Part shown: positions 8,660 through 64,000 of the stretch, one piece after another | How positions within the stretch are numbered: position 1 is the stretch's first letter | Layout: each line of letters opens with the position of its first letter | Source: Octopus vulgaris | Lineage: Eukaryota | Assembly (NCBI GenBank): GCA_951406725.2 | Contig: OX597822.1 | Coordinates: 28,830,001-28,894,000, forward strand | Direction: 5' to 3' | DNA: 64,000 bases | Notes under the pieces: model-generated | The model's input: only the letters and a program-made list of their open reading frames with translations | Told to the model about the DNA's origin: nothing | Databases searched by the model: none | Translations under genes and position numbers: made by a program

Positions 8660-10654
8660 ATGGAAAGTTTTTTTCAATTCTTAATGGTTTCTCTTATACC
8701 ATTCCAAAATCTTGCATCAGCACAATCATCAGCGAACAACAGCAACGAAGACAGTCCACCATGTTTTCCAGCCTTGTGTTCTAAAACCCCCCAACAAGAA
8801 CGCTGTTCGTGTCGCCCGGACTGCTATCTCTACAATGAATGTTGTTCTGACATGAGTAATAACACCACTTCTGAACACAAACAACCCTATCCATCAACAT
8901 ATTACAGTTGTAGAAATGCTAATAGCTCTTATTATTATCAGTTTGACCGCTGTCCTCCCAACCATGATATTACGGAGTTTGTAAGCAACTGTGAAAATCC
9001 TAACTCAGAGGATCAACTGCAAAACATACCTGCTTTTGGCAAAACAAGTAAAAAATTATATAGGAACTTATATTGTGCTTTGTGTCATGGAGAAGAATTC
9101 ATTTTATGGAATCTCAGGTTTGACTGCCCTGAAAGTGGAAATGTAAACCTTGAAAAGCTATCAGATTTTGTCGAAGATCATAACTGCAGGAAACAGTTAG
9201 AAATTCCCTCGAAGGATTTAGATCAATATCTCTTTTCTTGCAATCCATATATTTCCAGCTGTCCTGAACATAACAATTATACGAAGCTCGAAGTTGCATG
9301 CGAATATGAGCCCATGGCGTTAGTAAAAAGTGACTCAAAATTATTCAGAAACAGTCATTGTGCTGCATGTCATGGACTTAAAGAAATTTATGATTGGTGT
9401 AAAGAGAACAGAGGTACAAATGAAATGAAACAAATGCCTTCATTAAGTATCCTTTTCGATTATCGCACCAATGTGTTTGTAATATATGATAAGAAATCCA
9501 GCAACCGAAATGTTGGGAAATTGCCCTCTTGCCTAAAAAACTCCGTCTTTGATATAAATACACGGCAATGTCGACAAGTTGTCTATAATTCTCCATTAAA
9601 CTGTACGGCAACAAGATTAAGCAAATCTGAGTATTACATCACTAGTGATGGTCTTCTCTACTTAAATAATACCCAACGTTTTCTGAACCAATCAGAATTC
9701 ATTCAAGATTCTGACGGTATAATAAGTATCTGTATAAAGAATGGTGGCAATGGTGTATCAAAATATTCCATTGCTGAGGGCTATATCACTTTAGTAGGAC
9801 TAGTAATCTCTATTCCAGCTCTAGCAGTTACTATTATAGTCTATCTCTGTATACCTGATCTTCGTACCTTACCAGGTAAATTACTCATTAGTCTTTTATC
9901 AGCACTGTTTGCAGCTGAGCTTCTCTTTCTTATTTCATCACAAGTCACTAAATCCACAGTGCTGTGTAAATCTTTAGCTATTATGATGCATTATTTGTTT
10001 CTAGCGACTTTCTTCTGGATGAATGTCATGTCATTTGATGCTTGGTACACTTTCTCAGGATTTAAACAACTTCGGAGTTCAGGAAAAAATACTAAGAGAC
10101 TTGTATTGTATTCTTTGTATGGCTGGATCTGTCCACTTGTAATAGTAACAGTATCACTGATATTTGAGTACACACCTGGAAATCATATTTCTCCGGAATA
10201 TGGAAATGGTATTTGCTGGATTACAAACGGAAATGGTCTGATGTGGCTATTTGCAACCCCTGTATTGCTCCTTTTATGTCTTAATATATTGGCTTTTATC
10301 CTCACCTCTAGAGGGCTATATATGGCCAGGAAACTTTCATCGAAATATTTACGTAAGCGTAATAAATTGGAATTCCTCATTTACATAAAACTCTGCTTCG
10401 TCATGGGACTAACATGGATATTCGCATTCTTCTATGCATTTACAAGAATTGATGAATTTTCTTTATTATTTTGTATTTTAAACTCATTTACTGGACTGTT
10501 TATTTGCCTCTCGTTCCTCTTCACGAAGATCGTCTGCCGTAGACTACTGAAAAAAGTGAATAAGTTTCAAAAACGCTCTCCCACCAAATCTATGGCTTTA
10601 TCTTCAACTTCCTCTAAAACACTAATGACGGACACATTTAGTCAGATTCCTTAA
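8660..10654 (+). CDS. Secretin-class (class B, Methuselah-like) GPCR 1 with Cys-rich ectodomain, 664 aa, intron-free CDS
   Basis: Hydrophobic signal peptide; somatomedin-B-like CSCRPDCYLYNECCSD; two (Y/F)RNxxCAxC repeats; seven hydrophobic segments with class-B motifs HYLFLATFFWMNVMSFD, YSLYGWICP, GICWI and MGLTW. No GPS motif. Confidence 0.92.
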   Translation: MESFFQFLMVSLIPFQNLASAQSSANNSNEDSPPCFPALCSKTPQQERCSCRPDCYLYNECCSDMSNNTTSEHKQPYPSTYYSCRNANSSYYYQFDRCPPNHDITEFVSNCENPNSEDQLQNIPAFGKTSKKLYRNLYCALCHGEEFILWNLRFDCPESGNVNLEKLSDFVEDHNCRKQLEIPSKDLDQYLFSCNPYISSCPEHNNYTKLEVACEYEPMALVKSDSKLFRNSHCAACHGLKEIYDWCKENRGTNEMKQMPSLSILFDYRTNVFVIYDKKSSNRNVGKLPSCLKNSVFDINTRQCRQVVYNSPLNCTATRLSKSEYYITSDGLLYLNNTQRFLNQSEFIQDSDGIISICIKNGGNGVSKYSIAEGYITLVGLVISIPALAVTIIVYLCIPDLRTLPGKLLISLLSALFAAELLFLISSQVTKSTVLCKSLAIMMHYLFLATFFWMNVMSFDAWYTFSGFKQLRSSGKNTKRLVLYSLYGWICPLVIVTVSLIFEYTPGNHISPEYGNGICWITNGNGLMWLFATPVLLLLCLNILAFILTSRGLYMARKLSSKYLRKRNKLEFLIYIKLCFVMGLTWIFAFFYAFTRIDEFSLLFCILNSFTGLFICLSFLFTKIVCRRLLKKVNKFQKRSPTKSMALSSTSSKTLMTDTFSQIP

Positions 10655-10847: not shown

Positions 10848-11915
10848 TCAGGTCGCCCTATAGGTTCTGTCCGATTTTACCTTTTTTAAAATTGAATGAA
10901 ATTTAATAGCATTTTAGAATGTGTAATGGAATTAAAAATTATTTTTATGCATTTGTGTACATTTAAAGTAATTAAATATTATTTTATAGAATAATAGAAT
11001 TAAAATTTCTTTGATTAAAGCCCTTTCTAACTTGAAAGTATCCAAAGAGTATTTGAGGCACGTAATGCTTTATGAGTACAAAAAAGGAAGCTCTACAACC
11101 GAAGCGATTCAAAACATACACTCAGTTTATGGGAAAGAATGCTTGAATGAAAGAACATACAGAAGATGGTTTGCAAATTTCAGAAGTGGAGATTTCAGCC
11201 TTGAAAAGGAAGATCGAACAGGACGTCCAGTTGAGTTTGATGATAAGCTCCTTGAGGCATTACTTGAAGAAAATCCTGCATTATCAGTTGAAGAATTGGC
11301 AATGAAACTTAGTTCAAACCATCGTCAACAACTTGGAAAGGTTCCTAAACTTGGAAAATGGGTGTCTCATGAATTGTCCGAAAGCAAGCGCAAATCCCGA
11401 GTAGACATCTACTCTTCTCTCCATTCTCGCGAACTCATTTCACCCTTTTTGGATAGACTTGTGTCTGGTGACGAAAAATGGATCTTCTGTCGAAATGTTA
11501 AACGTCGTGAACAGTGAATTAGTAAAAGAGAAAAAGCTCAACCACAACTGAGAAGGAAACTTCATGGAAAAAAGGTTCTTCTCTCTATCTAGTGGGATTG
11601 CAAAGGAGTAATTCACTATGAATTGTTACCACCTCATGCAACAATCAATGCTATCATTTGTTTCGTAGTTTACAGAATCATTTGCGGGACATAACTTTCG
11701 CAAGCCAGGAGGGGGTCGAAATTGACATTTCAGAGTTCTTCGCTTTGAAACCAAAAGAGTTTTACATCGATGGGATTAAAAAGCTTGTAAATAGATGGAA
11801 GGAAGTCATAGATAATCGGGGAAAGTACATTGCTGATTAAATTTCAATTAAATATAACATTTTATCACTTGCTTTCTTTATTCAAAATTCGGACAGAACT
11901 TATGGGATGACCTGA
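10848..11915 (+). mobile_element. Mariner element with internal deletion
   Basis: Imperfect TIRs TCAGGTCGCCCTATAGGTTCTGTCCGA / TCGGACAGAACTTATGGGATGACCTGA flanked by TA. ORF 11011-11517 has an HTH region, WVSHEL and GDEKW; FRSLQNHL follows at 11658. Confidence 0.9.
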
Positions 11916-14559: not shown

Positions 14560-15039
14560 TGAGTGTACGTATATATATATATATATATATATCTCTTATT
14601 ATAAAAGGCAGATTTTATCTGCCTCCCTTTGGGAGTTATACAAATCTACAATATAGGATTTCTTCAATTACAATTTACCTAGCAGTTTTAAGAGTACAAT
14701 GCATCGCGTCATGCCAGGTCCAGTTTTTAAAATTTAAACTCCAGTTAAGCAAAATTTACAGAAAACTCACATTCTGGTGTGTGTGTCAAATGCTTTTCTT
14801 AGTCTGGTTTACAGCACACACAAACGCACACACACAGTGGGCAACGAATAAAACGAAAGTAATTCACTTACTGTAGTGAGTGATTCTTTCACTCTGCCTC
14901 CCACTTCCTCTTTCAACACATTGACAAGCAAATATATAAATAAAATTGTAAGCTAACGTGCGTGTGTGTGAGTGTGTGTGTGTGTGTGTGTGCGTGTGTG
15001 TGTGTGTGTGTGAGGGTGAACATAAGACCAAAGCAGAGA

Positions 15040-15270
15040 ATGTATTCTTTTATTCTTCTGCTTTTTCCAGCCATTGGTCTGTGGCCATGCTGGGGCAATG
15101 CCTTGAAGAATTGTAGTTTAATGAATCAACTCCAGTTTTATTTTTGTAAGCATTGTGCTTATTCTATCTGTTTCCTTTGTCAAACCACTAGGTGACAGGG
15201 GTGTAAACAAACCAACATTCGTTGTCAAGCAGTGGTGGAGGACAATCACAAGCACAGACACGCACACACA
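15040..15270 (-). mobile_element. 3' part of a second SINE family (duplicated at about 17215-17440)
   Basis: Reverse complement matches the SINE-like tails at about 41690-41850 and 50100-50320. Confidence 0.6.
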
Positions 15271-15295
15271 CACATACATGCATACACATATACAC

Positions 15296-15326
<31 letters not shown>

Positions 15327-15344
15327 TATGTGTGTATATATATA

Positions 15345-15603
15345 TTGCAGCGTGGAAGGTGTTTGTAAGCCATTTAAGAAACACACAAAAACCGTTACAT
15401 TCACTTCAACATTTAAATTTAATTTGCCAAAATATTTTCGTCGCTTTCAGACCGCGACCTGTTCACTGACAAAAATATCGTGCTAACAGGTCGCGGTCTC
15501 AAAGTGACGAAAATATTTTGACAAATTAAATTTAAATGTTGAAGTGAATCTAACGCTTTTTGTGTGTTTCTTAAATGGCTTATAAACACCTTCAACGCTG
15601 CAA
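15345..15603. repeat. Long palindrome, arms about 115-120 bp (second copy 17532-17790)
   Basis: TTGCAGCGTGGAAGGTGTTT...CGCGACCTGTT / AACAGGTCGCG...AAACACCTTCAACGCTGCAA. Confidence 0.9.
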
Positions 15604-15766
15604 CTGTTTTCGTTCCAGCACACGATCTCAGATCAAGTCACTTGCTATGCAAGTACATCTCTGTAACTATATATATATTATATATATATATATATATGTA
15701 TATTGGTAAAAACAGTAAGATAACAAAAGAAAGAAAGAGACCTCAATATTAAGTAAATAGAGGAAA

Positions 15767-16161
15767 TCTTTATATATAAAAGTGAGGTTGTGTGTCTGTC
15801 TCCTACGATTTAGATTCCTAACTACTCCCACATTTTGCGGTGCAGTTTAACTAAAAGCGGGTATCTTATAGTCGTGATTCATATCGAGACCGTCTGGGTA
15901 TTAGCGCGCGTCTACGATGAGTCTACGATTTAAAAAAAAATTTACCATCAATTTTTCCCATTTTTAATCCATTTTTGACATATATAAGGGAAGTAACTCT
16001 CTAAAATTTATTATTAAATCTCAGAACGTAAAAAGCTACAGTAACACCCCTCCCCCTTTGTGGTTAGCCATATTGAGATGGCTATTATACTTTACATCTC
16101 TAAAAATGCTTATATAATTATTTCCCTTACAAACCCGAGCAACGCCGGGCGATACTGCTAG
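15767..16161 (+). mobile_element. Internal short Helitron (about 395 bp) supplying the 3' end of the composite (second copy about 17957-18351)
   Basis: A|TCTTTATATATAAAAG 5' end; CCCG-N8-CGGG hairpin followed by CTAG at the 3' end. Confidence 0.75.
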
Positions 16162-16669
16162 TCTTATTATAAAAGGCAGATTTTATCTGCCTCCCTTTGG
16201 GAGTTATACAAATCTACAATATAGGATTTCTTCAATTACAATTTACCTAGCATTTTTAGAGTACAATGCATCGCGTCATGCCAGGTCCAGTTTTTAAAAT
16301 TTAAACTCCAATTAAGCAAAATTTACAGAAAACTCACATTCTGGTGTGTGTGTCAAATGCTTTTCTTAGTCTGGTTTACACCACACGCAAACGCACACAC
16401 ACAGTGGGCAACGAATAAAATGAAAGTAATTGACTTACTGTAGTGAGTGATTCTTTCACTCTGCCTCCCACTTCCTCTTTCAACACATAGACACGCAAAT
16501 ATATAAATAAAATTGTAAGCTAACGTGCGTGTGTGTGAGTGGGTGTGTGTGGGTGTGCGCGTGTGTGTGTGTGAGGGTGCGTGTGTGTGTGTGTGTGTGT
16601 GCGTGTGCGTGAGTGTGTGACAGGAAAGTTTTTTACGACGAATATATAACACCTATATCCAAGTAGCAG

Positions 16670-17150
16670 AAAGATAAGACAGTAAGGTGTGATTTGAGGG
16701 AGATTTGGCTGCTATTTCTACCATGTCTAGCTGCCATGTAGGGGTCTCCCTCATAGGCTCATACATACATATATACATAGATAAGACAGTAAGGTGTGAT
16801 TTGGGGGAAATTTGGCTGCTATTTCTACCAGGTCTAGCTGCCATGTAGGGGTCTCCCTCATAGGCTCATACATACATATATACATAGATAAGACAGTAAG
16901 GTGTGATTTGGGGGAAATTTGGCTGCTATTTCTACCAGGTCTAGCTGCCATGTAGGGGTCTCCCTCATAGGCTCATACATACATATATACATAGATAAGA
17001 CAGTAAGGTGTGATTTGGGGGAAATTTGGCTGCTATTTCTACCAGGTCTAGCTACCATGTAGAGGTCCCCCTCATTGGCTCATATATATATACATACATA
17101 AGACAGTAAGGTGTGATTTGAGGGAGATTTGGCTGCTGTTTCTACCAGGT
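16670..17150. repeat. 107-bp minisatellite, about 4.5 copies
   Basis: Unit GATAAGACAGTAAGGTGTGATTTGGGGGAAATTTGGCTGCTATTTCTACCAGGTCTAGC... recurs every 107 nt (ORF offsets 16751 and 16858). A similar sequence occurs singly at about 33340-33385. Confidence 0.92.
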
Positions 17151-17470
17151 CTGTTAGGCCTTCTCATGTAAACTCAAGCTTTCTCATGCCTTGAACATAA
17201 GACCAAAGCAGAGAATGTATTCTTTTATTCTTCTGCTTTTTCCAGCCATTGGTCTGTGACCATGCTGGGGCAATGCCTTGAAGAATTGTAGTTTAATGAA
17301 TCAACTCCAGTTTTATTTTTGTAAGCATTGTACTTATTCTATCTGTTTCCTTTGTCAAACCACTAGGTGACAGGGATGTAAACAAACCAACATTCGTTGT
17401 CAAGCAGTGGTGGAGGACAATCACAAGCACAGACACGCACACACACACATACATGCATACACATATACAC

Positions 17471-17516
<46 letters not shown>

Positions 17517-18356
17517 GTGTGTATATATATATTGCAGCCTGGAAGGTGTTTCTAAGCCATTTAAGAAACACACAAAAACCGTTACATTCACTTCAACATT
17601 TAAATTTAATTTGCCAAAATATTTTCGTCGCTTTGAGACCGCGACCTGTTCACTGACAAAAATATCGTGCTAACAGGTCGCGGTCTCAAAGCGACGAAAA
17701 TATTTTGACAAATTAAATTTAAATGTTGAAGTGAATCTAACGGTTTTTTTGTGTTTCTTAAATGGCTTATAAACACCTTCAACGCTGCAACTGTTTTCGT
17801 TCCAGCACACGATCTCAGATCAAGTCACTTGCTATGCAAGTACATCTCTGTAACTATATATATATTTATATATATATATATATATATGTATATTGGTAAA
17901 AACAGTAAGATAACAAAAGAAAGAAAGAGACCTCAATATTATGTAAATAGAGGAAATCTTTATATATAAAAGTGAGGTTGTGTGTCTGTCTCCTACGATT
18001 TAGATTCCTAACTACTCCCACATTTTGCGGTGCAGTTTAACCAAAACCGGGTATCTTATAGTCGTGATTCATATCGAGACCGTCTGGGTATTAGCGCGCG
18101 TCTACGATGAGTCTACGATTAAAAAAAAAATTTACCATCAATTTTTCCCATTTTTAATCCATTTTTGACATATATAAGGGAAGTAACTCTCTAAAATTTA
18201 TTATTAAATCTCAGAACGTAAAAAGCTACATTAACACCCCTCCCCCTTTGTGGTTAGCCATATTGAGATGGCTATTATACTTTACATCTCTAAAAATGCT
18301 TATATAATTATTTCCCTTACAAATCCGAGCAACGCCGGGCGATACTGCTAGTATAT

Positions 18357-25365: not shown

Positions 25366-26520
25366 AGTGCTTGTAAAAGTCTTCCCTCTTTCTAGCCTCC
25401 ACTTTTCGCAATTTCCAATGTAGCACTTTCGCTACCTGATCGTGGTTTTGAGCAGGTCTAAGGCATTCGTTTGTGATATGGACAGCAGTTTCACCCACTC
25501 TGTTGCAGATGCAGCACAGCGGACACACTGGCTCATTCCGAAAGCTGACCATTCAGTTCCTGGCCAGAGCAGTATAGTGCTCTCGGTCTCTTATTTTAGG
25601 GTTCCTACTATTATTATTATTTAGTCTTTTTATCCCAGGTTTTGTTGGAGTTCCTGGAGTCTTGCCTGAGTAGCAGGCTGGCTGCCTGCAGCCTACAGTA
25701 CCATGCTATCAGTTCTTTTCAACTATCTAATACTTTCCCGATTATTCTGGTCGTGCCAAAGATGCAAACCTTTTGTAACCGCTCTACTGGGTACTCGCTT
25801 CTCTTTTATATTCCTCTTGATGCCTTCTGATACCGTCCCCCAAAGACCTAACAATAATTGACACTTCTTCACCTACTTCGTTTTCCATAACCGAGCTATT
25901 CCACAGCGGACACACTGGCTCATTCCGAAAGCTGACCATTCAGTTCCTGGCCAGAGCAGTATAGTGCTCTCGGTCTCTTATTTTAGGGTTCCTACTATTA
26001 TTATTATTTAGTCTTTTTATCCCAGGTTTTGTTGGAGTTCCTGGAGTCTTGCCTGAGTAGCAGGCTGGCTGCCTGCAGCCTACAGTACCATGCTATCAGT
26101 TCTTTTCAACTATCTAATACTTTCCCGATTATTCTGGTCGTGCCAAAGATGCAAACCTTTTGTAACCGCTCTACTGGGTACTCGCTTCTCTTTTATATTC
26201 CTCTTGATGCCTTCTGATACCGTCCCCCAAAGACCCAACAATAATTGACACTTCTTCACCTTCTTCGTTTTCCATAACCGAGCTATTCCGTACTTAAGAG
26301 GAATGTATATCTTTTTTTTGTTTGCCTTCCATCTTGACTATTCATGGGTCAAAGAGGTATGCAACATCAATTATATAGCACATGTGATGCACCTTGCCAC
26401 CCAATGTTTTTTCCACAGTTCTATTGTCCTGCATACATCAATTTCGTATATAAGTTTTACAGGTAAACAATGTACTTTTCTGGAAAATGGGAAAAATTGT
26501 GAAAACTGAGTGGTGAAAAT
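25365..26520 (-). mobile_element. R4/Dong-like fragments containing a 387-bp near-perfect tandem duplication (25515-25901, 25902-26288)
   Basis: CPLCCICNRVGETAVHITNEC...HDQVAKVLHW; identical ORFs at 25642 and 26029, offset 387. Confidence 0.75.
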
Positions 26521-42188: not shown

Positions 42189-44126
42189 ATGGAAATCGTC
42201 TTCAATCATAACTTTTCTATTTTATTTTTTATCCTTGCATTTATGAATCACGTCGTTCTAACTTCAAACTCTAACTTAAAATGTTTCAATACTACGGATT
42301 GTGAATTTTGCTCATTTGCAAAGCAATGTCATATGTACAACAGATGCTGTTGTAATGAAGATCAACGGAAAACTGTTGAGTCCGAATATTTCGATCCATC
42401 AATATATTATAGTTGCAGCCTTGTTCAGGACAAAACATATTATATCTTTGACCGCTGTCCATCAAATCACAGTGATATAAGTCATGTGACCAGATGTGAA
42501 TATCCTAAAAACAATGATAGTCCAGACAATATTCCTGTGTTCGGTGAAACAAGTAAAAGACTCTATATGAACCGATATTGTGCTTTGTGTCACACAGAGA
42601 AATATATATTATGGGATATTGTTTATGACTGTGATAATACAGTAAATATAAATCGTGCCGATTTAATGAATATGATTGAAAATGGTAAATGTTCCAAACG
42701 CAAAGCTCCTCCGGATAATTTAAAACCTTATCTGATGCCTTGCATTTCCAGTGTTAGTAAATGCTCGCCTCAAATATTAAATGAAACATTGGAACATCAA
42801 TGTCCAACTTTAGAAAAGCCACGATGTACATCGTCTAATGATTATACCGATCGAAACATCTTATGTTGCAGTGTATCAACCAGTACATCATCGAGTCGAA
42901 AGGGATTTCCATTAACTATCATTTTTAATTATAATATCAAATATTTAACTATTAAAGAAAAAATAGACGGAACTGAAATTGAAACGAAATTGCCATTTTG
43001 TCCAAAATACACCAATTACGATAAAAACACAATGCGTTGTCGCAAGAATTTTTATCACCCCATCTTAAATTGTACAGCGACCAGATTGAAGGACTCTGAA
43101 TATCATATCACTAGTGATGGTCTTCTCTATTTAAATATTACCCAACTTTGGCTCAATCAATCAGAATTCAGTATTGATGAAGATGGTTTAAGTATCTGTG
43201 TAAAGAATGATAACGATGAAATATCAAAATATTCCGAAATTGAAACCTATATCACATTAGTGGGACTAGCAATCTCTGTCCCAGCTCTGGCAATCACTAT
43301 TATAGTCTATCTCTGTATACCTGATCTCCGTACCTTACCAGGTAAACTACTCATTAGTCTTTCATCGGCACTGTTTGTAGCTGAGCTTCTGTTTCTTATC
43401 TCATCACAAGTCACTACATCCACAGTGCTGTGTAAATCTTCAGCTGTTGTAATGCATTATGCGTTTTTAGCGACATTCTTCTGGACGAATGTCATGTCAT
43501 TTGATGCCTGGAACACTTTCTCAAGGCTTACACAACTTCGGAGTTCAGAAAATGATACCAAGAAACTTGTATTATATTCCTTATATGCTTGGATCTGTCC
43601 ACTTCTAATAGTAACAGTGTCACTGATATTTGAGTACACACCTGGAAATCGTGGATTTTCTCCAGAATATGGAATTGGTATTTGCTGGATTACAAACGTG
43701 AACAGTTTATTGTGGTTCTTAGCAATCCCTGTTATCATTATTTTATGTTTGAATATTATAGCGTACAGTATCACTATCAGAGAGTTGTATTTGGTCAGCA
43801 AACTTTCTTCAAAATATTTATCAAAACGAAACAAGAAGGTGTTCTTCATTTACATAAAATTAAGCTTCATCATGGGTTTAACATGGATGCTCGGATTCCT
43901 TTATACGTTTACGAAGATTGACGAATTTTCTCTACTATTTTGCATCTTAAACTCTTTCGTTGGTTTACTCATTTCTTTGTCATTTCTCTTAACAAAGATC
44001 GTCTGCCGCAGTTTTCAACATATGTTTATTAAAATACGAAAATATGTCGATTTCTCAAACGCCGATGTTTCGACGATTACTGAAACAATGTCGACCTACA
44101 CCGAACATGATACATCACTAAAATAA
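42189..44126 (+). CDS. Methuselah-like class B GPCR 2, 645 aa from the first ATG
   Basis: The ORF track starts at a TTG (42162); the first ATG is 42189 (MEIVFNHNFSILFFILAF, signal-like). Cys-rich ectodomain with LYMNRYCALC; 7TM as in GPCR-1. Confidence 0.92.
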   Translation: MEIVFNHNFSILFFILAFMNHVVLTSNSNLKCFNTTDCEFCSFAKQCHMYNRCCCNEDQRKTVESEYFDPSIYYSCSLVQDKTYYIFDRCPSNHSDISHVTRCEYPKNNDSPDNIPVFGETSKRLYMNRYCALCHTEKYILWDIVYDCDNTVNINRADLMNMIENGKCSKRKAPPDNLKPYLMPCISSVSKCSPQILNETLEHQCPTLEKPRCTSSNDYTDRNILCCSVSTSTSSSRKGFPLTIIFNYNIKYLTIKEKIDGTEIETKLPFCPKYTNYDKNTMRCRKNFYHPILNCTATRLKDSEYHITSDGLLYLNITQLWLNQSEFSIDEDGLSICVKNDNDEISKYSEIETYITLVGLAISVPALAITIIVYLCIPDLRTLPGKLLISLSSALFVAELLFLISSQVTTSTVLCKSSAVVMHYAFLATFFWTNVMSFDAWNTFSRLTQLRSSENDTKKLVLYSLYAWICPLLIVTVSLIFEYTPGNRGFSPEYGIGICWITNVNSLLWFLAIPVIIILCLNIIAYSITIRELYLVSKLSSKYLSKRNKKVFFIYIKLSFIMGLTWMLGFLYTFTKIDEFSLLFCILNSFVGLLISLSFLLTKIVCRSFQHMFIKIRKYVDFSNADVSTITETMSTYTEHDTSLK

Positions 44127-44299
44127 TAGAAATTTCTCCGGAAATTTTCTAGACAACAGATATTCTACCACAGTACACAACCTTTAGTAACGCTGCATTC
44201 TATAAACTACACTGTAAGGCCTGTAACATCACAACACATGCTGCATTTTGTATCAGACTACTTTACTTTTATGATAATGATATAAACGTTAAGAATTAT

Positions 44300-44305
44300 A
44301 ATAAA
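44300..44305 (+). terminator. AATAAA polyadenylation signal of GPCR-2 (conserved at 46888-46893 and 52774-52779)
   Basis: Same relative position, about 170-185 nt after the stop, in three homologous 3' UTRs. Confidence 0.6.
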
Positions 44306-44521
44306 ATGCAGATTGTGAGGGCGTCACAGATATCCTTCAACAGGCTTTCATATTAGAAACTGAAAAACAGTTGCATCAATCTCAGCTTCTCATCTACTCC
44401 AGCGGGCATTTTGTGATTATATTTATTGTCAACGAGCTTTTAACCGTAAAGAAATAATATTATCAAATTGTCGTGAGCATTTCCTTGCATCGTTTCATTA
44501 TTGAATACTATTAGTAAATAT

Positions 44522-44541
44522 CTTTATTTCTTCTTTTCCAG
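44522..44541 (+). other. Putative splice acceptor of GPCR-3 (identical one ending at 50432 for GPCR-4)
   Basis: CTTTATTTCTTCTTTTCCAG|G. Confidence 0.62.
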
Positions 44542-44715
44542 GTATTACTACGAAAACTCTATAACCCAAAACAACTTACCTTTAAGCTATAGCTCATTCT
44601 TGTTTGCTTATATTCAAAGACATAAATACATTGGAAGCATTTTCGATTTTGATCTATTCAAATTACTCCATTGTAGTAAAATTCATCAACAAATTGATAT
44701 CAGTATAAATCCTGG

Positions 44716-46704
44716 ATGTCTTCAAGATTGCTGATTCAACATTTTCAGTTCCGAATGGAAATCATCTTAAAATATTACTTTTCTACTTTATTTCTTATCA
44801 CTATATTTATGAATAATATCATTCCAACATCAAATTCTGTCCTAAATTGTTTACGTACGACGGATTGTGAATTTTGCTCTCTTGCACAACACTGTCATAT
44901 ATATAATAGATGCTGCTGTAATGAAGATCAACAGAAAACTGTTGAGTCCGAATATTTCGATCCATCAATATATTATAGTTGCAGCCTTGTTCAGAACAAA
45001 ACATATTATATCTTTGATCACTGTCCATCAAATCACAGTGATATAAGTCATGTGAACGGATGTGAATATCCTACAAACAACGATAGCCCGGACAATATGC
45101 CTGTGTTCGGTGAAACAAGTAAAAGACTCTACAGGAACCGATATTGTGCTCTGTGCCACTCGGAAAAATATATATTATGGGAGATAGTTTATGACTGCGA
45201 TAATACAGCAAATAAAAACCCTGCCAATATAATGAATATTATTGAAAATGGTAAATGTCCCAAACGGAACGCTCCACCTGATAATTTAGAACCTTATCTA
45301 GTCCCTTGCATACCCAGTGTTACTAAATGCTCGCTGCATATATTAAATAAATCATTAGGACATCACTGTCAGCTTTCTAAATATACACATAATATTACAG
45401 AGATAAAGTGTACATTGTCAATGAAATATATTAAACTCAACATCAAATGTTGCAATAATTCTTTGAGTTCTGCTAAACTACGGTCTTCGTTAACTATCAT
45501 TTTTAATTATAATGCCAAATATTTAATCATTAAAGAAGTGAAAGACGGTACTGTAATTGAAACGAAATTGCCATTCTGTCCAAAATACACCAATTACGAT
45601 AAAAACACAATGCGTTGTCGCAAGAATTTTTATCACCCCATCTTAAATTGTACAGCGACCAGATTGAAGGACTCTGAATATCATATCACTAGTGATGGTC
45701 TTCTCTATTTAAATATTACCCAACTTTGGCTCAATCAATCAGAATTCAGTATTGATGAAGATGGTTTAAGTATCTGTGTAAAGAATGATAACAATGGAAT
45801 ATCAAAATATTCCGAAATTGAGATCTATATCACATTAGTGGGACTAGCAATCTCTGTCCCAGCTCTAGCAATCACTATTATAGTCTATCTCTGTATACCT
45901 GATCTCCGTACCTTACCAGGTAAACTACTCATTAGTCTTTTATCAGCACTGTTTGTAGCTGAGCTTCTCTTTCTTATCTCATCACAAATTACTACATCTA
46001 CAGTGCTGTGTAAATCTTTAGCTGTTGTAATGCATTATGCATTTTTAGCGACTTTCTTCTGGACGAATGTCATGTCATTTGATGCCTGGAACACTTTCTC
46101 AAGGCTTACACAACTTCGGAGTTCAGAAAATGATACCAAGAAACTTGTATTATATTCCTTATATGCTTGGGTCTGTCCACTTCTAATAGTAACAGTGTCA
46201 CTGATATTCGAGTACACCCCTGGAAATCATGGACTTTCTCCAGAATATGGAATTGGTATTTGCTGGATTACAAACGTGAACAGTTTGCTTTGGTTCTTGG
46301 CAATCCCCGTTATCATTATTTTATGCATTAATATTATAGCGTACAGCTTTACTATTAGAGAGTTGTACCTGACCAGCAAATGTTCTTCAAAATATTTATC
46401 AAAACGAAACAAAAAAGTGTTCTTTATTTACGTAAAATTAAGCTTCATCATGGGTTTAACATGGATGCTCGGATTCCTTTATACGTTTACGAAGATTGAC
46501 GAATTTTCTCTACTATTTTGCATTTTAAACTCTTTTGTCGGTTTACTCATTTCTTTGTCATTTCTCTTAACAAAGATCGTCTGCCGAACTTTTCAACGTA
46601 TGTCTCTTGAAATACGAAAATATGTCGATTTCTCAAACTCTGATATTTCAATGATTCCTAAAACAATCTCGACAAATAACCTACATGAAACATCACTACA
46701 ATAA
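44716..46704 (+). CDS. Methuselah-like class B GPCR 3, 662 aa (alternative start 44755, MEIILK)
   Basis: Intact ORF paralogous to GPCR-2 and GPCR-4, with the same ectodomain Cys pattern and 7TM motifs. Confidence 0.92.
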   Translation: MSSRLLIQHFQFRMEIILKYYFSTLFLITIFMNNIIPTSNSVLNCLRTTDCEFCSLAQHCHIYNRCCCNEDQQKTVESEYFDPSIYYSCSLVQNKTYYIFDHCPSNHSDISHVNGCEYPTNNDSPDNMPVFGETSKRLYRNRYCALCHSEKYILWEIVYDCDNTANKNPANIMNIIENGKCPKRNAPPDNLEPYLVPCIPSVTKCSLHILNKSLGHHCQLSKYTHNITEIKCTLSMKYIKLNIKCCNNSLSSAKLRSSLTIIFNYNAKYLIIKEVKDGTVIETKLPFCPKYTNYDKNTMRCRKNFYHPILNCTATRLKDSEYHITSDGLLYLNITQLWLNQSEFSIDEDGLSICVKNDNNGISKYSEIEIYITLVGLAISVPALAITIIVYLCIPDLRTLPGKLLISLLSALFVAELLFLISSQITTSTVLCKSLAVVMHYAFLATFFWTNVMSFDAWNTFSRLTQLRSSENDTKKLVLYSLYAWVCPLLIVTVSLIFEYTPGNHGLSPEYGIGICWITNVNSLLWFLAIPVIIILCINIIAYSFTIRELYLTSKCSSKYLSKRNKKVFFIYVKLSFIMGLTWMLGFLYTFTKIDEFSLLFCILNSFVGLLISLSFLLTKIVCRTFQRMSLEIRKYVDFSNSDISMIPKTISTNNLHETSLQ

Positions 46705-47829
46705 TTGATATTTCTCCGGAAATATTCTAAACAACATACATTCTACCACAATATATAACCTGTAGTACCGCTGCATTCTTTAAACTATATTGTAAAAGAC
46801 TCTAACGTTGCACCACTTGCTGCATTGTATATCACACTTCTTTACGTTTATAATGAGACAATGATATGCATAAACGTTAAGATTTATAATAAAGTAAAAA
46901 CTGTGATGACGTTACTCATAGCCTTCAACGGGCTTTCATATTAGAAATTCAAACAGTGTTTCCTCTGGCTACACAATTTGACCAATCTCAGTTTCTCACC
47001 TTCTCCGGCGGTACTTTTTACGATTATATCTAGGATCAATGGTTTTTAAACCGACTTAAGTATTTTGATTTTCTCTCAAGGACTAATAAATATTTCCACA
47101 ACTGGATAATACTAAATTCCTATAACTTTTCGGATGCTTTTCTCTCACTCTCACCATACATCTCAATCGGAATAGAATTCACCAATTTCCCTAACAGATT
47201 CATTCTCAAACCGTGGTCTGTCGTCATGAAACCATTCTCTTCACATCACATGAAATACATATAGGAAGAAACAATGAGACTGGAAGTCGTCTGCATCGGC
47301 AAGACTTTTGTTATCTAGAGAAAGTGACAGAACGAGTAGAGTGAATTTGCCGTACCTAATGGAATATCCAACATTTTTGCAAGAATCTTTCTCGAGGTAA
47401 ATTTGAAAGGAAATAAATGAAGGCTGCGAAGTTGTTCCTCTATGTCTGAGAGGGTTGGTTTCCATGTCTTTGTTCCGGGCATAAGTTGTTTTAGTTGCTC
47501 TTGTATTATGTTTAACTATTTTGATTTCAAACTACATATTTACAAAACATATTTCAAGCATTCACATTAAATACTTGTTCTCTCTGAAACATTCTGTGAG
47601 CAATACATTTTCCCTTCTCTCACAGACGCTATAGAAATCGAAATTTGATACACATGGAAATGTTATTCTGTTCCCAAAGTTTCTTGTGTTGCAGATTGTA
47701 GCTTTTCAGATATGTACCCCAAGATCGTGTTACTTGTAATAAATATATAGAGGAACAGTATATATATATGACATGAATGTTCACATCACGTCTTATATTA
47801 TATAACTAGTTGTATTTATTTAGATGATA

Positions 47830-48957
47830 TCTGATATATATAAATCACAGCATATGTGTGTATAATGACTAACGCATACATTTCCACAATTCTCAACCGA
47901 TTTTCACCAAACTTTACACACACGTTGCTTATGTCACAAGGATGGTCATGCACTAAACATTTTTCCCGGAGCTTCCGCGTAAATAGACCTAAATGGACAT
48001 AGTTTTTGTATGTAGGATCTTCCATACATTTTAATCTTTTTATGAAGTGAAAGGATTTTGTCTATTTATTTCGACTGTACTCCTGCCACGTTGATTAAAT
48101 TGACTAGGAATACTGTAGCGATGAATATCCAATATCAAGCAATCTTAATCTCCATAGTTAAACTGCATTAAACTTTGGCAGGCTTACTTTTACTTATTCT
48201 GAGTTACTTGAAAGATGATGTCTCCTTCCCTCCCTTCTATTTGTTGAGACCTTTGTTTACCTACCAATGCGTTGTTTCACTTTAAGGGTGCCTATTTGCC
48301 CATCCATTATGATATTTCGACTATTGTCCGTTGTTTCAAATATGCTTTAGCATTGTCATTTTAGCCTCTTTTAAACAATTACTTATGATTCGTCCCCAAA
48401 TAATCAACCTTTAAATAAGAGTTTTGCTTACACTAGCGAAAGCTATACGTATCTTTCAGAAAAATCCGTACCAATTTAACTCTATACAGCATTCGCTGTT
48501 ATATTATGCGCATGCTATACGGGAAAACAGAATAAAGGGGCTTTTGTCAACTTATCTCTCCGAAAAAATAGCTACTTTGCTGTTGAAAAAAGTAAATTCG
48601 CAGAGGGGAAGTTTCACCGTTTTCTTTCAATTCCCTTACACCATTTATGTGGCTGTTTATGACAACAAATTTCGCTTTCGTGTAAAACAACTATATTTGG
48701 TTGTCAATATTCGTAATCTACTCCCATAACACTTCAGTAGCTCTGCTTTGCATAGCTCTCAAACTTTCATGTTCTATGATCATTAAAGTGCAACGACCTC
48801 CACAATAACCAGACTGCAATTCGATTTTCCGTTCCTAGGTTAATCGGAAACATAGATTGCCGTACTACTCATAAACATTCTCGCTAGTTCAATTATCTAA
48901 TGAAAAAAATACCACCATAGCAGCTTAAACCATCCAAGGGACGGGTGTGTTTGCTAG
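47830..48957 (+). mobile_element. Non-autonomous Helitron, 1128 bp
   Basis: A|TCTGATATATATAAA...GGGACGGGTGTGTTTGCTAG|T. The paralogous spacer shows the empty site ATGATA|TATGTT at 49899/49900 with no target-site duplication. Confidence 0.8.
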
Positions 48958-49249
48958 TATGTTATATTATTCCATTTTCGTGCCTTCTTTCAAGGCACCA
49001 CTAGTTACAATAAATGGCTTGTTATATTTTGTTTACTGGTGACATTGAAAGATGCATCACATTACCTATCTGATTATACGTGAATAGTAACATTTAATGT
49101 CCTGTTATAATAAAACTTTCTAAAGCATGACATATATCCCACTATGAGTGCTATGAGTGTGTGTGGGTAGCTGCAGGTGTCTCTGTTTGTATCTGTTCCA
49201 ACACAGTTTCATAATTGCTGTTGGTTGGTTTTCGTCCAGTAAGTGGGCC

Positions 49250-49389
49250 TGTTTTTAGCTGAGCTTCTCTTTCTTATTTCATCGCAAGTCACTACATCCA
49301 CAGTGCTGTGTAAATCTTTAGCTATTATGATGCATTATTCGTTCTTAGCTACTTTCTTCTGAATGAATGTCATGTCACTTAATGCCTGG
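49250..49389 (+). pseudogene. Collapsed GPCR paralogue (TM2-TM3 remnant with stop) fused to its 3' UTR
   Basis: FLAELLFLISSQVTTSTVLCKSLAIMMHYSFLATFF*MNVMSLNAW, followed by GGCTTTCATATTAG...CTCATCTACTCCAGCGGG, homologous to 44343-44406. Confidence 0.88.
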
Positions 49390-50606
49390 CTTTCATATTA
49401 GGAATTGAAACACAGTTCCCTCAATCTCAGTTTCTCATCTACTCCAGCGGGCCTTTTCTACATATATCTTTTGTCAACGATTTTTAAAAGGAAATAAAAG
49501 AAGGCAACGGAGATGTTCCTCTGTGTCTGAGAGGGATTCTGTGTCTTTGTTCGAGACATTAATAGTTTCAAGTGATCTTGTATTATATTTAACTACGATG
49601 TTTTCAAACTACATATTTACAAAACAAATTTCAGACGTTCGCATTAATCATTTCTTCTCTCTGAAACATTTCGTGTAGAGGCGGTGAACAATACATTTTC
49701 ATTTATTACACAAAAACTGTAGAAAACGAATTTGGTTCTCATGGAAATTTGTTCTGTGCCCTCTGTGTTTTGTGCTGTTTTCCAAATATGACACTCAAGG
49801 TTGCTTTATTTGAAATATATAGAGAAACAGTGCGTATATCACATGACTGCTCACATCACATCATATATTATATAACTGGTTATAACTACTTAAATGATAT
49901 ATGTTGTATTATTCAATTTAACTGCCTTCTTTCAATACACCACTAGATACGATAAATGGCTTGTTATATTTTGTGTACTGGTGAAATTGCACGATGCGTC
50001 ACATTACAAATCTGATTATATTACGTCAATAGTAACATTTCTTCTCTTATAAGAAAATTTTCTCAAGCACACTATGTCTCAGTATGGGTGTTTGGGTGGC
50101 TGCAGGTGCCCGTGTTTCTTTTGTCCCAACACAGTTTCACATTTGCTGTTAGTTTCTTTTCGTCCTCGCGACTTAGAGTTTCATCAGTAAGATGCCGATA
50201 GGAAAAGTACCAAATATAGAAACATTACTGTGATCAATTTGTTCCATTAAACCTTTCAGGGCCGTGTCCCAGTAGAGTTGCACTCTGATGGCTGAAACAA
50301 ATAAAAGTATTACAAAATAATAAGAGTTCAAAATGTAAAGAAATAATATTATCAAATTGTCATAAGCATTTCCTTGCATCGTTTCATTATATTGAATACT
50401 ATTAGTAAATATCTTTATTTCTTCTTTTCCAGGTATTACTACGAAAACTCTATAACCCAAAACAACTTACCTTTAAGCTATAGCTCATTCTTGTTTGCTT
50501 ATATTCAAAGACATAAATACATTGGAAGCATTTTCGATTTTGATCTATTCAAATTACTCCATTGTAGTAAAATTCATCAACAAATTGATATCAGTATAAA
50601 TCCTGG

Positions 50607-52604
50607 ATGTCTTCAAGATTGCTGATTCAACATTTTCAGTTCCGAATGGAAATCATCTTAAAATATTACTTTTCTACTTTATTTCTTATCACTATATTTA
50701 TGAATAATATCATTCCAACATCAAATTCTGTCCTAAATTGTTTACGTACGACGGATTGTGAATTTTGCTCTCTTGCACAACACTGTCATATATATAATAG
50801 ATGCTGCTGTAATGAAGATCAACAGAAAACTGTTGAGTCCGAATATTTCGATCCATCAATATATTATAGTTGCAGCCTTGTTCAGGACAAAACATATTAT
50901 ATCTTTGATCACTGTCCATCAAATCACAGTGATATAAGTCATGTGAACGGATGTGAATATCCTACAAACAACAATAGCCCGGACAATATGCCTGTGTTCG
51001 GTGAAACAAGTAAAAGACTCTACAGGAACCGATATTGTGCTCTGTGCCACTCGGAAAAATATATATTATGGGAGATAGTTTATGACTGCGATAATACAGT
51101 AAATAAAAACCCTGCCAATATAATGAATATTATTGAAAATGGTAAATGTCCCAAGCAGAACGCTCCTCCTGATAATTTAAAGCCGTATCTGGTTCCTTGC
51201 ATTCCAAGTGTTCGTAAATGCTCGCCTCTTATATTAAATGAAACATTGGAACATCACTGTCAAAATTTAGCAAGTAAGAACCTTAGAGGAAAGGCCCAAT
51301 GTACATTAGATAATATCTATACTGATCAAGGCATTATATGTTGCAATAATACTAACAACAATGATTTTGGTTTTACAAGCTTACCTTCCTTAACTATCAT
51401 TTTTAATTATAATGCCAAATATTTAATCATTAAAGAAGTGAAAGACGGTACTGTAATTGAAACGAAATTGCCATTCTGTCCAAAATATACCAATTACGAT
51501 AAAAACACAATGCGTTGTCGCAAGAATTTTTATCACCCCATCTTAAATTGTACAGCGACCAGATTGAAGGACTCTGAACATCATATCACTAGTGATGGTT
51601 TTCTCTATTTAAATATTACCCAACTTTGGCTCAATCAATCAGAATTCAGTATTGATGAAGATGGTTTAAGTATCTGTGTAAAGAATGATAACAATGGAAT
51701 ATCAAAATATTCCGAAATTGAGAGCTATATCACATTAGTAGGACTAGCAATCTCTGTCCCAGCTCTAGCAATCACTATTATAGTCTATCTCTGTATACCT
51801 GATCTCCGTACCTTACCAGGTAAATTGCTCATTAGTCTTTCATCAGCACTGTTTGTAGCTGAGCTTCTCTTTCTTATCTCATCACAAATTACTACATCTA
51901 CAGTGCTGTGTAAATCTTTAGCTGTTGTCATGCATTATGCATTTTTAGCGACTTTCTTCTGGATGAATGTCATGTCTTTTGATGCCTGGCACACTTTCTC
52001 AAGGCTTACACAATTCCGGAGATCAGAAAATGATACCAAGAAACTTGTATTATATTGCTTATATGCTTGGATCTGTCCACTTCTAATAGTTACAGTGTCA
52101 CTAATATTCGAGTACACACCTGGAAATCATGGACTTTCTCCAGAATATGGAATTGGTAATTGCTGGATTACAAATGTAAACAGTTTACTCTGGTTCATGG
52201 CAATCCCTGTTATCATTATATTATGCCTCAATATTATAGCGTATAGCATCACTATTAGAGAATTATATTTGGCCTGCAAACTTTCTTCAAAATATTTATC
52301 AAAACGAAACAAGAAGGTGTTCTTCATTTACATAAAATTAAGCTTCATCATGGGTTTAACGTGGATATTCGGATTCCTTTATACGTTTACGAAGATTGAC
52401 GAATTTTCTCTACTATTTTGCATCTTAAACTCTTTCGTCGGTTTACTCATTTCTTTGTCATTTCTCTTAACAAAGATCGTCTGCCGCAGTTTTCAACATA
52501 TGTTTCTTAAAATACGAAAATATATCGATTCCTCAAACGCTGATCTCTCGACGATTACTGAAACAATCTCGACCAATATTCAACATGAAACGTCACTAAA
52601 TTAA
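50607..52604 (+). CDS. Methuselah-like class B GPCR 4, 665 aa (alternative start 50646)
   Basis: Intact ORF; 5' flank and first approximately 185 aa are almost identical to GPCR-3. Confidence 0.92.
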   Translation: MSSRLLIQHFQFRMEIILKYYFSTLFLITIFMNNIIPTSNSVLNCLRTTDCEFCSLAQHCHIYNRCCCNEDQQKTVESEYFDPSIYYSCSLVQDKTYYIFDHCPSNHSDISHVNGCEYPTNNNSPDNMPVFGETSKRLYRNRYCALCHSEKYILWEIVYDCDNTVNKNPANIMNIIENGKCPKQNAPPDNLKPYLVPCIPSVRKCSPLILNETLEHHCQNLASKNLRGKAQCTLDNIYTDQGIICCNNTNNNDFGFTSLPSLTIIFNYNAKYLIIKEVKDGTVIETKLPFCPKYTNYDKNTMRCRKNFYHPILNCTATRLKDSEHHITSDGFLYLNITQLWLNQSEFSIDEDGLSICVKNDNNGISKYSEIESYITLVGLAISVPALAITIIVYLCIPDLRTLPGKLLISLSSALFVAELLFLISSQITTSTVLCKSLAVVMHYAFLATFFWMNVMSFDAWHTFSRLTQFRRSENDTKKLVLYCLYAWICPLLIVTVSLIFEYTPGNHGLSPEYGIGNCWITNVNSLLWFMAIPVIIILCLNIIAYSITIRELYLACKLSSKYLSKRNKKVFFIYIKLSFIMGLTWIFGFLYTFTKIDEFSLLFCILNSFVGLLISLSFLLTKIVCRSFQHMFLKIRKYIDSSNADLSTITETISTNIQHETSLN

Positions 52605-62382: not shown

Positions 62383-64000
62383 TTATTGGATATTTTTTTC
62401 AGATGCTGATGGTGATGTACAGTAAAAAGTAGAAATGTTCGAGAAATTCCCAAACTGCAGGCATTTTTTAGCTATTATTCTTGTGGAAAGAAAAGAAAAA
62501 CAAACAAATAATCCCAAAAATGAATTACAGATACAGAAAAGGAGAGAAAATTCACTGATTTTTGTGAATGTATACAGGAATCCCAAGATCCATGTTAAAC
62601 CCATAACAAGACTGAGCTTGAAGAAAATTTGGAAGTGAATATTATGGTAACTTATTAAATATTTTGCAGAACGCTTCATTTCTAAACGGAGGCCTCTTGA
62701 AATAAAAATAAAAGCTAAAATATTAAGTATTAACAGTATTATCACTGGAATTCCAAACACCAATAATAAACACTTTCCATTTGTAATCCAGCATACACCC
62801 TTGCCATATGCTGGCGAAATTGCTTTGTTTTCTGGTATATACTCAAGTAGGAGTGACATAGTTACAATTATAAGTGGACTGATCCATGCATATATAGAAT
62901 ACGGTAAAAGTTTTTTATTACCCTGATTAGAAATATGAAATTGCATGAATCCTGAGAAAGTGCAGCAGGCATCAAACGATATGACATTCATCCAGAAGAA
63001 CGATGCTAAGAAAGAATAATGCATCAAAACAGCTGTTAAAATACATTGAATAGTATACGGAGGTACATATCTAGAAATAAGAAACAAAACCTCTGCCAAA
63101 AACAGCGATGACAGAAGACTGATTACGAATTTACCTGGTAAAGTACGTAGTTCAGGTATACAGAGATAAGTTACAATTGTTATTAGTAGAGCAGGAACAG
63201 AAATAGTAAGACCTATAAATGTAATATAACTCTCAGATGTAGCATATTTTGATATTGCACCGAAGTCCTTATCTATGCAGATACTTATGCCTTGAGTGTC
63301 CTGGCTGAATTCTGTTCTGTTCAGTAGTCGTTGAGTTTTATTCAAATAAAGCAGACCTTCATCATTGAGGTAATATTCATCATCATTTAGTCTCACTGCA
63401 ATACAATTCATGAGTGAATAGAAGAAAACTGAACGACACTGGTTTTGATAAACATCAAATAATAAATCACTGTTACAGAGAATTGTTTCATGCCTTCCTG
63501 CGCTTCTATTCGTGTCGCCACTCTCTTGAATAGCATTTATGTATTGTAATATATTACTGCTGTGGTCGAATATTATAGTCAATGGATAGGTTCTTTCAAC
63601 CGTTTTGCGACCTGAATTAAAATATGTAGTGTTTAAGGCACTGCATAAAGCACAGTGTCGGTACTTATTTGAAGATGCCAGTGACATAGAATTTGTTTCA
63701 CATAACTCCGATCTATTTTCATGTCGCTCTTTTATAGAACAATTCGAAATATCGTATAAGCATTCATGTAGATTATTAATAAATGTAATATCTGGGACAT
63801 CAAATGAATAAAAGGTACATGTACCATTTGAAAGATACCTTGAAAGTTGCTGATATGTAATATCATTCACATCGCATTCATAAATCGATTTGCCCAAGAT
63901 GTATTCTTGATCGTTGCACAAAGCACAGAATAAGTTCTTGTACAATCTTTTGTCTACTTTCCCGAAAGCTGGTACTTTCAAGATATAATCTTCATCAACA
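62383..64000 (-). CDS. Methuselah-like class B GPCR 5, 5' end beyond the window
   Basis: Frame stays open to the window edge (VDEDYILKVPAFGKVDKRLYKNLFCALC aligns with GPCR-1 QNIPAFGKTSKKLYRNLYCALC); full 7TM with HYSFLASFFWMNVISFD, CWIT and MGLTW. Convergent with GPCR-4. Confidence 0.9.
   Translation of the reverse strand, partial: VDEDYILKVPAFGKVDKRLYKNLFCALCNDQEYILGKSIYECDVNDITYQQLSRYLSNGTCTFYSFDVPDITFINNLHECLYDISNCSIKERHENRSELCETNSMSLASSNKYRHCALCSALNTTYFNSGRKTVERTYPLTIIFDHSSNILQYINAIQESGDTNRSAGRHETILCNSDLLFDVYQNQCRSVFFYSLMNCIAVRLNDDEYYLNDEGLLYLNKTQRLLNRTEFSQDTQGISICIDKDFGAISKYATSESYITFIGLTISVPALLITIVTYLCIPELRTLPGKFVISLLSSLFLAEVLFLISRYVPPYTIQCILTAVLMHYSFLASFFWMNVISFDACCTFSGFMQFHISNQGNKKLLPYSIYAWISPLIIVTMSLLLEYIPENKAISPAYGKGVCWITNGKCLLLVFGIPVIILLILNILAFIFISRGLRLEMKRSAKYLISYHNIHFQIFFKLSLVMGLTWILGFLYTFTKISEFSLLFCICNSFLGLFVCFSFLSTRIIAKKCLQFGNFSNISTFYCTSPSASEKNIQ

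Follow-up and report, generated by a model that had tools for sequence, protein, structure and literature searches.

A divergent ectodomain patch sheltered from gene conversion in tandem Methuselah-like receptors of Octopus vulgaris

A 64-kb stretch of the Octopus vulgaris genome (64,000 nt of contig OX597822.1, positions 28,830,001 to 28,894,000; hereafter the window) carries five G-protein-coupled receptor genes, GPCR-1 to GPCR-5, each encoding a 7tm_2 receptor in one coding exon. The locus raises the question of why neighbouring receptors that are nearly identical over long stretches differ so strongly in one short, cysteine-bearing segment of the ectodomain. An original prediction, made from the DNA letters alone, took this segment for a ligand-specificity module resembling a complementarity-determining region (CDR), set on a constant signalling chassis within a diversified chemosensory or immune repertoire. 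We find that the segment is an old and fixed signature of each gene, and that the likeness around it is the product of gene conversion. Our preferred reading, to which we give a probability of roughly 55%, is by analogy with better known systems that the segment is a specificity surface sheltered from conversion, which would likely contact a ligand.

The segment, here called the patch, lies on the plus strand at 42768-42911 in GPCR-2 (gene 42189-44126; 645 aa), at 45334-45489 in GPCR-3 (44755-46704; 649 aa) and at 51225-51389 in GPCR-4 (50646-52604; 652 aa), and is 48, 52 and 55 aa long, respectively. It consists of a remodelled second cysteine-rich repeat followed by a tip loop, the tip being its last 13 residues (42873-42911, 45451-45489 and 51351-51389). 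The three peptides quoted in the original prediction are all present in the sequence, each with the C...C...CC pattern; two of the predicted starts need shifting by 2-4 nt, and the GPCR-2 patch, at 48 aa, falls short of the 50-55 aa given there. The patches of the three paralogs are 35-46% identical. As predicted, GPCR-3 and GPCR-4 are nearly the same before the patch, with 6 differences in the first 193 aa, and their ectodomains are 97% identical on both of its sides, while the patch itself retains only 18 of 52 residues (35%). It is not the sole divergent part of otherwise near-identical receptors, as had been supposed: beyond it, GPCR-3 and GPCR-4 share 109 of 112 residues in the remaining ectodomain, 232 of 249 (93%) in the seven-transmembrane (7TM) domain and 29 of 43 (67%) in the C-terminal tail, and GPCR-2 is only 78% identical to either upstream of the patch. 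The tail of GPCR-3 is the most distinct, at 53-67% identity to those of GPCR-2 and GPCR-4, which could alter desensitisation or trafficking.

The uniform part of these receptors reflects concerted evolution by gene conversion. We compared GPCR-2 and GPCR-4 with their O. bimaculoides orthologs (P0012, UniRef A0A0L8GFC5, for GPCR-2; P0009/P0002 for GPCR-4) and counted the informative sites that group the sequences by orthology or by species. In aa 19-270, 22 sites follow orthology and 2 follow species; in aa 271-620, 3 follow orthology and 11 follow species (Fisher P 2e-5, with the boundary at aa 270/271 set after seeing the sites). Trees built by region concur, the O. bimaculoides paralogs joining each other with 97% support for aa 271-620. 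Within the patch, all 10 informative sites follow orthology, and identity is 75-100% to orthologs versus 35-46% to paralogs. What the original prediction took for a constant signalling chassis is kept alike by conversion.

Individual tracts can be recognized as well. Directly after the patch, GPCR-2 (42999-43214) and GPCR-3 (about 45577-45792) share an identical run of 216 nt, and GPCR-3 (44499-44994) and GPCR-4 (about 50390-50885) share a recent one of 496 nt, extending from 256 nt upstream of the start codon into the N-terminal domain; neither length was reached in 2000 shuffles. The longest identical run between GPCR-2 and GPCR-4, 92 nt, was matched in 10 of 2000 shuffles. At the very start of the patch these two genes share 26 nt (42774-42799 and 51231-51256), likely a short conversion tract because the O. 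bimaculoides ortholog of GPCR-2 differs there at 4 residues; the direction is a deduction, and the tract would explain 4 of the 12 patch differences from P0012. To appreciate these identities, we note that the 3' flanks of the three genes differ at 17-22 positions per 100 nt. Conversion on this scale distorts trees and ratios of non-synonymous to synonymous change (dN/dS, or omega) calculated on these genes.

How old are the three patch types? The GPCR-3 patch is identical to that of its O. sinensis ortholog P0003 at 52 of 52 positions, and the GPCR-4 patch to that of P0014 at 55 of 55, amounting to 107 of 107 residues. Toward O. bimaculoides, 36 of 48 residues are shared between GPCR-2 and P0012 and 41 of 55 between GPCR-4 and P0009, with no indels. 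Further evidence comes from contigs of public runs, for which the comparison covered 42650-45600 of the window, 4 of the 24 listed runs, four organisms, 32 of 553 pieces and 40 of 348 difference rows. The GPCR-2 patch is spanned by contigs with 1 differing letter in 357 nt (run X8), 22 in 270 (X17) and 37 in 365 (X16), and the GPCR-3 patch by contigs with 7 in 610 nt (X9) and, for two X16 contigs of GPCR-3 length, 63 in 440 and 29 in 263; coverage is interrupted in X9 over the GPCR-2 patch and in X8 at 45464-45471. Since orthologs and spanning contigs occur in several organisms, all three patch types predate the deeper split among them; the split of O. bimaculoides and O. sinensis is put at 13-34 million years in the accessible part of a published study (PMC10925132). 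Each patch type is thus a fixed, old signature of its paralog. Judged across close species, the receptors lack the hypervariability of CDR-type repertoires, and this part of the original prediction is not borne out.

We considered whether GPCR-3 arose recently by copying of GPCR-4, its patch having changed explosively since, and rejected this, as the GPCR-3 patch is equidistant from all others (35-38%) and is spanned in a distant organism by contigs of GPCR-3 length. The two X16 contigs concerned (records 6 and 7, at 45153-45592) are distinct GPCR-3-type sequences, representing either alleles or an additional copy. Compensating 1-nt indels occur near 45464-45471 in X16 and X17. In P0003, the hairpin right after the patch has lost 3 aa and carries three further changes, and two N-terminal sites hold GPCR-2-like residues; the conversion history of this ortholog differs from that of GPCR-3 in the window.

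Among the three paralogs, the patch has an omega of 0.57-0.74 by counting. The indel-free shoulder beside it has an omega of 0.07-0.18 at a dS-like distance of 0.8-1.0 (95% sets from 0.25-0.4 up to 2), compared with 0-0.1 in converted tracts and 0.2-0.25 in the tails, all with wide intervals. For GPCR-3 and GPCR-4 the shoulder (aa 166-193) gives 1.0 (95% set 0.4-2) with an omega of 0.07, and the tail 0.25 (0.1-0.5). The shoulder is a peak of divergence under purifying selection. In the patch itself, counting gives a dS of 0.68-0.98, a value that we do not rely on alone, and likelihood estimates saturate; codons that encode the same residue show 0.14-0.28 synonymous differences per codon, like other unconverted parts. 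Fixing dS at 0.27 yields patch omegas of 1.7-5.4, which we rejected as proof of selection because the shoulder suggests a higher local dS. The locus has what characterizes an island sheltered from conversion: a constant region that groups by species, an island that follows orthology, and a peak of dS at and beside it. Roughly neutral divergence (omega 0.5-1.3) is also seen in the signal region of GPCR-2 (42189-42293, aa 1-35) and in the C-terminal tails of GPCR-2, -3 and -4.

The fastest change is concentrated in the tip. Across ten pairs of O. bimaculoides versus O. sinensis or window proteins, the tip is the fastest 13-aa window of the protein, with 54 of 130 positions changed, compared with 9% in the 7TM domain, 13% in the core of the second repeat and 137 of 830 in signal, linker, stalk and tail together (P 9e-10 for the tip excess). 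The neutral expectation, computed at a published dS of 0.123 (as given in the accessible part of PMC10925132), is 23-24% amino-acid change, and 9 of the 10 pairs exceed it (9, 4, 5, 9, 4, 4, 0, 6, 6 and 7 changes out of 13). This window was picked on four of the pairs; the six others have 30 of 78 tip positions changed (P 0.003), and five strict one-to-one pairs 23 of 65 (P 0.024). Bootstrapping over pairs places the changed fraction at 0.29-0.53, and the implied omega of the tip runs from 1.7 (dS 0.15) to 2.6 (dS 0.10). Rows in which the region is missing, belonging to partial or chimeric models, do not enter these counts.

Single comparisons show the same concentration. GPCR-1 (8660-10654, plus strand; 664 aa), which has an intact ancestral second repeat (about 9260-9400), differs from its ortholog P0011 at 9 of 13 tip residues (9404-9442), versus 64 of 656 over the whole protein. 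In P0168, P0189 and P0190, a young triplet from O. sinensis, the tip varies in 10 of its 13 columns, versus 78 of 668 for the protein as a whole (0 of 5000 shuffles); the second-repeat hairpin and the hairpin behind the tip also vary, though less. Tips of the closest species differ at only 4 of 91 positions, and a single pair accounts for 3 of these. Tip lengths are equal in most pairs and one ortholog pair is unchanged (0 of 13); the tip is therefore not free to drift in every gene. Taken together, we estimate that across the cluster the tip changes at about twice the neutral rate, episodically, and that it is nearly frozen between sister species.

What is the patch in terms of the receptor family? 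An alignment of 107 relatives reveals a module C-x12-C-hairpin-RNxxCAxC-x8-C, followed by a loop of 12-20 aa that corresponds to the tip and then by a conserved L[ST]I[IL]F strand. In GPCR-2, -3 and -4 the hairpin of the second repeat and the RN..C have been lost and a cysteine has been gained beside the last one, and the full ectodomains of GPCR-1 to GPCR-4 each contain 24 cysteines. The proposed equivalence of the patch with the second RNxxCAxC repeat holds for GPCR-1 in this alignment and only in part for GPCR-5 (62383-63999, minus strand, cut by the window end), which has CAxC but lacks the RN; the patch region of GPCR-5 has likewise diverged from that of its nearest relative, P0022. The second repeat of GPCR-1 is predicted to be folded (predicted local distance difference test, pLDDT, about 90), with helix, hairpin and helix in succession as in the first repeat. 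For GPCR-4, confidence is high throughout the model except in the patch (pLDDT <50), which is no proof of disorder, the remodelled form being present in only 6 of the 107 alignment rows.

All five receptors match PF00002 (7tm_2) above the curated cut-off (E 3e-22 to 7e-33), relatives are named 'Mth-like' in their source records, and orthologs are annotated as cd15039 7tmB3_Methuselah-like in table S3 of PMC6408891, as far as it is accessible. By domain and published annotation, the cluster can be assigned to the Mth/Mthl family as defined by its 7TM domain (de Mendoza 2016). The octopus receptors share with the Drosophila Mth/Mthl proteins this common 7tm_2 body and a cysteine-rich ectodomain (PMC4768249, PMC3655951, accessible parts). 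They differ in that Methuselah_N (PF06652) was not found in any of the five at E 0.1 in a Pfam search; the ectodomain instead belongs to DUF8401 (PF28443; 365 representatives at E 0.001), and its 24 cysteines contrast with the ten of Methuselah_N. Wider Mth/Mthl membership is unaffected, because non-arthropod members are described as lacking Methuselah_N (PMC4768249, accessible part). No GPS or GAIN Pfam match was obtained at E 0.1 in the five receptors, and by sequence they are classed as other than adhesion GPCRs. Foldseek returned zero matches at E 0.001 and the fold comparison no Z of 5 or above, which leaves a new fold unproven. The match to the fly Methuselah ectodomain (1fjr) is weak (Z 3.6, root-mean-square deviation 3.2, 55 residues aligned; Z 4.2, deviation 2.4, 54 aligned), tied with unrelated rows and confined to the membrane-proximal 55 residues.

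Orthology and gene order connect the cluster to a published expansion. The O. bimaculoides genes A0A0L8GFD1, A0A0L8GFC5 and A0A0L8GFJ7, which count among the 14 Scaffold69694 genes of the octopus-specific Methuselah-like 'group 4' (Ritschard et al. 2019, PMC6408891, accessible parts), are the orthologs of GPCR-1, -2 and -4, in conserved order and orientation and with a minus-strand gene next. On these grounds of orthology and synteny, the octopus cluster can be placed in the group 4 expansion; the 44-row tree behind the orthology was made with the quick version of the search. No GPCR-3-type gene is listed between GFC5 and GFJ7, and no ectodomain patch, tip or conversion within these coding regions is described, in the accessible parts of that study. 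Its table S2 gives expression proportions for sucker and skin of 0.83 and 0.17 for A0A0L8GFD1, 0.22 and 0.78 for A0A0L8GFC5, and 0.46 and 0.54 for A0A0L8GFJ7, with zero in ten other tissues for each.

We propose the following history for the patch. The genes descend from an old duplication, with the roughly 20% divergence of the 3' flanks as background. The alignment indicates that the ancestor of GPCR-2, -3 and -4 then lost the second-repeat hairpin and the RN..C, gained a cysteine and retained 24 ectodomain cysteines. Repeated conversion, tracked over aa 271-620 in all three genes and in the N-terminus of GPCR-3 and GPCR-4, has homogenised stalk and 7TM domain within each species, each gene retaining its own patch since before the split of O. 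vulgaris and O. bimaculoides. The tip has changed in episodes at an estimated twice the neutral rate. In this reading, patch and tip would touch a peptide or protein ligand at the sucker and skin epithelium, and the shared 7TM domain would pass on one common signal. Each gene's patch has likely persisted because selection purges conversions that would erase the ligand-contact surface. A peptide or protein ligand is suggested because these are class B receptors and because fly Mthl10 senses growth-blocking peptides at epithelial wounds (10.1101/2020.12.08.415554, accessible part). For fly Mth/Mthl proteins more generally, peptide ligands and epithelial signalling are described, and adaptive amino-acid change has been reported for mth (PMC4768249, PMC3655951, 10.1101/2020.12.08.415554, accessible parts). 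The ligand-module idea of the original prediction survives in this narrower form, as an ectodomain island with its cysteines kept, resistant to conversion, with the fastest 13 aa of the cluster at its end and orthologs listed in sucker and skin; the polymorphic CDR does not.

A number of points weigh against reading the patch as a specificity surface. By likelihood with free dS, patch omega is 0.18-0.78, whether the alignment is whole or cysteine-anchored, and is never significantly above 1 in any paralog comparison. Together with the raised dS of the shoulder, this is the old unconverted tract that the original prediction had itself named as the result that would speak against it. The whole patches of GPCR-2 and GPCR-4 have changed from their orthologs at 26 of 103 positions, which is the neutral rate (P 0.40), and their tips alone at 9 of 26, which is not significant (P 0.14). 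The X17 contig over the GPCR-2 region has at least 19 non-synonymous changes among its 22 differing letters in 270 nt if it encodes P0012 (an assumption with which 7 letters agree), not significantly different from neutral (P 0.11). For group 4 as a whole, a homogeneous omega of 0.306 with no selected sites is given in the accessible part of PMC6408891. The tip test sets protein counts, as opposed to codon counts, against a genome-wide dS; orthology is doubtful in 2 of the 10 pairs, two tips contain indels, and the counts could be too high if paralogs outside the sample have acted as conversion donors. The tip of GPCR-1 is a less confidently predicted loop (block mean pLDDT 66), and among distant relatives the tip has the highest column entropy, as expected of a linker. 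The expression values are proportions, and sequencing depth is absent from those rows of the accessible table S2.

These points bring up a possible though clearly less probable explanation, in which the patch is a relaxed loop, a spacer pinned by cysteines and with no role in specificity. The second repeat would have degenerated and gathered indels (48, 52 and 55 aa), and the mismatch alone would act as a mechanical barrier to conversion. The loss of the conserved RN..CAxC core, the neutral divergence of whole patches between orthologs, the omega not above 1, the low model confidence for the patch and the compensating indels in two runs all suit such a loop, and conversion is known to stop at indels and at divergent sequence (PMC3924837, accessible part). 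It leaves unexplained, however, the above-neutral tip in paralogs with an intact repeat and mostly without indels, as well as the compensated cysteine count of 24; nor does it readily account for the 0 changes in 107 patch residues toward O. sinensis while GPCR-3 changed elsewhere, a comparison of low power. A specificity surface is also the premise of a bolder proposal, which we regard as rather improbable. The cluster would be a contact-sensing repertoire of sucker and skin, in which three loops, the second-repeat hairpin, the tip and the next hairpin, make up a CDR-like binding face. Every duplication would be followed by positive selection that retunes this face, with the signalling body held uniform by conversion; GPCR-2, -3 and -4 would be a subfamily in which the face was remade around a different set of disulfides. 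If true, octopus taste-by-touch would have a GPCR arm, directed at peptides of prey, microbial or conspecific origin.

An arms race could also account for bursts of rapid change that fall in a single short window in many paralogs, with orthologs expressed in epithelium. A virus, parasite or prey toxin would bind this exposed loop in skin and sucker, the loop would change to escape, and conversion would be disfavoured because it exposes all copies. This is unlikely, since the patch types are static across sister species, whereas a race still under way should show up as polymorphism, and no interacting agent is known. Still further from the evidence is the strong form of the original prediction, a polymorphic or somatically diversified repertoire for immunity or self-recognition. 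It would agree with a variable segment enclosed by cysteines on an otherwise constant body, with the joint variation of three loops within about 90 aa in the O. sinensis triplet, and with the two GPCR-3-type versions in run X16. But the germline types number just three here and are all conserved between species, tblastn found no donor cassettes in the 64-kb window, and the listed expression is in sucker and skin, from an O. bimaculoides tissue set that excluded haemocytes; we consider it very improbable. An assembly artefact, with haplotypes placed in tandem or flanks collapsed, might be suspected from the long perfect runs between GPCR-3 and GPCR-4 and from chimeric public models at the locus such as P0001. 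It can be practically dismissed, because O. sinensis and O. bimaculoides have orthologs of their own for separate genes of the cluster, in conserved order, contigs from independent runs span the GPCR-2 and GPCR-3 patches at unchanged length, and the 3' flanks have diverged by 17-22%.

The pattern that supports the patch as a sheltered specificity surface has precedents. Within each species, conversion has evened out the signalling domain, the membrane span and the membrane-proximal ectodomain of mammalian TLR1 and TLR6, but their N-terminal part sorts by orthology (Kruithof et al. 2007, PMC2077338, accessible part). The likeness lies in tandem receptors undergoing species-wise conversion outside an island that follows orthology; the proteins are unrelated, and the octopus island is only about 50 aa long, with indels and a remodelled cysteine pattern. 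A specificity segment spared by conversion and with raised dS is also found in EC2-EC3 of the clustered protocadherins (PMC4978886) and at the exon 5 divergence peak of the red and green opsins (PMC3924837; accessible parts of both). In these two systems specificity is proven by experiment, whereas for the octopus patch we infer it.

The genes and the evolutionary pattern were each already known, and the example within these genes is new; a literature search largely without subscription journals or supplements gave no account of patch, tip or conversion in octopus Mthl genes. The candidate specificity determinant is narrowed to about 50 residues, the hottest part being 13, in an orphan sucker- and skin-linked cluster where a published whole-gene test had found no selected sites (PMC6408891, accessible part). 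GPCR-3 and GPCR-4 come close to a natural swap experiment, and given their near-identity around the patch, ligand screens and chimeras become direct tests.

Other features of the locus were also recorded. Fragments of GPCR-1, -2 and -4 match public proteins named as Octopus vulgaris at 100%, and the full-length window proteins are absent from the protein collection searched; public models for the cluster are often chimeric or truncated (P0001, P0008, P0010, P0013, P0016 and P0017). No RNA data set was listed for the stretch. About 215 nt upstream of the start codons of GPCR-2, -3 and -4, a pyrimidine-rich AG (41970, 44541 and 50432) is likely the splice acceptor behind a non-coding first exon, and the 496-nt tract of GPCR-3 and GPCR-4 includes this putative acceptor. 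Between these two genes, at 49246-49398 (plus strand), lies a relic of an additional receptor copy, a fragment of transmembrane helices 2 to 3 with an in-frame stop, fused to sequence resembling a 3' flank. Duplicated non-coding blocks surround it (47402-47839/49483-49909 and 48958-49237/49900-50165), and it is likely a product of unequal crossing-over between GPCR-3 and GPCR-4. A mariner/Mos1-type transposase fragment (10990-11517, plus strand; HTH_48, E 4e-20) is located 340 nt behind GPCR-1, and the 31-kb gap between GPCR-1 and GPCR-2 contains recent local duplications and tandem repeats that are 96-99% identical (14594-18352, 25515-26289 and 16672-17152).

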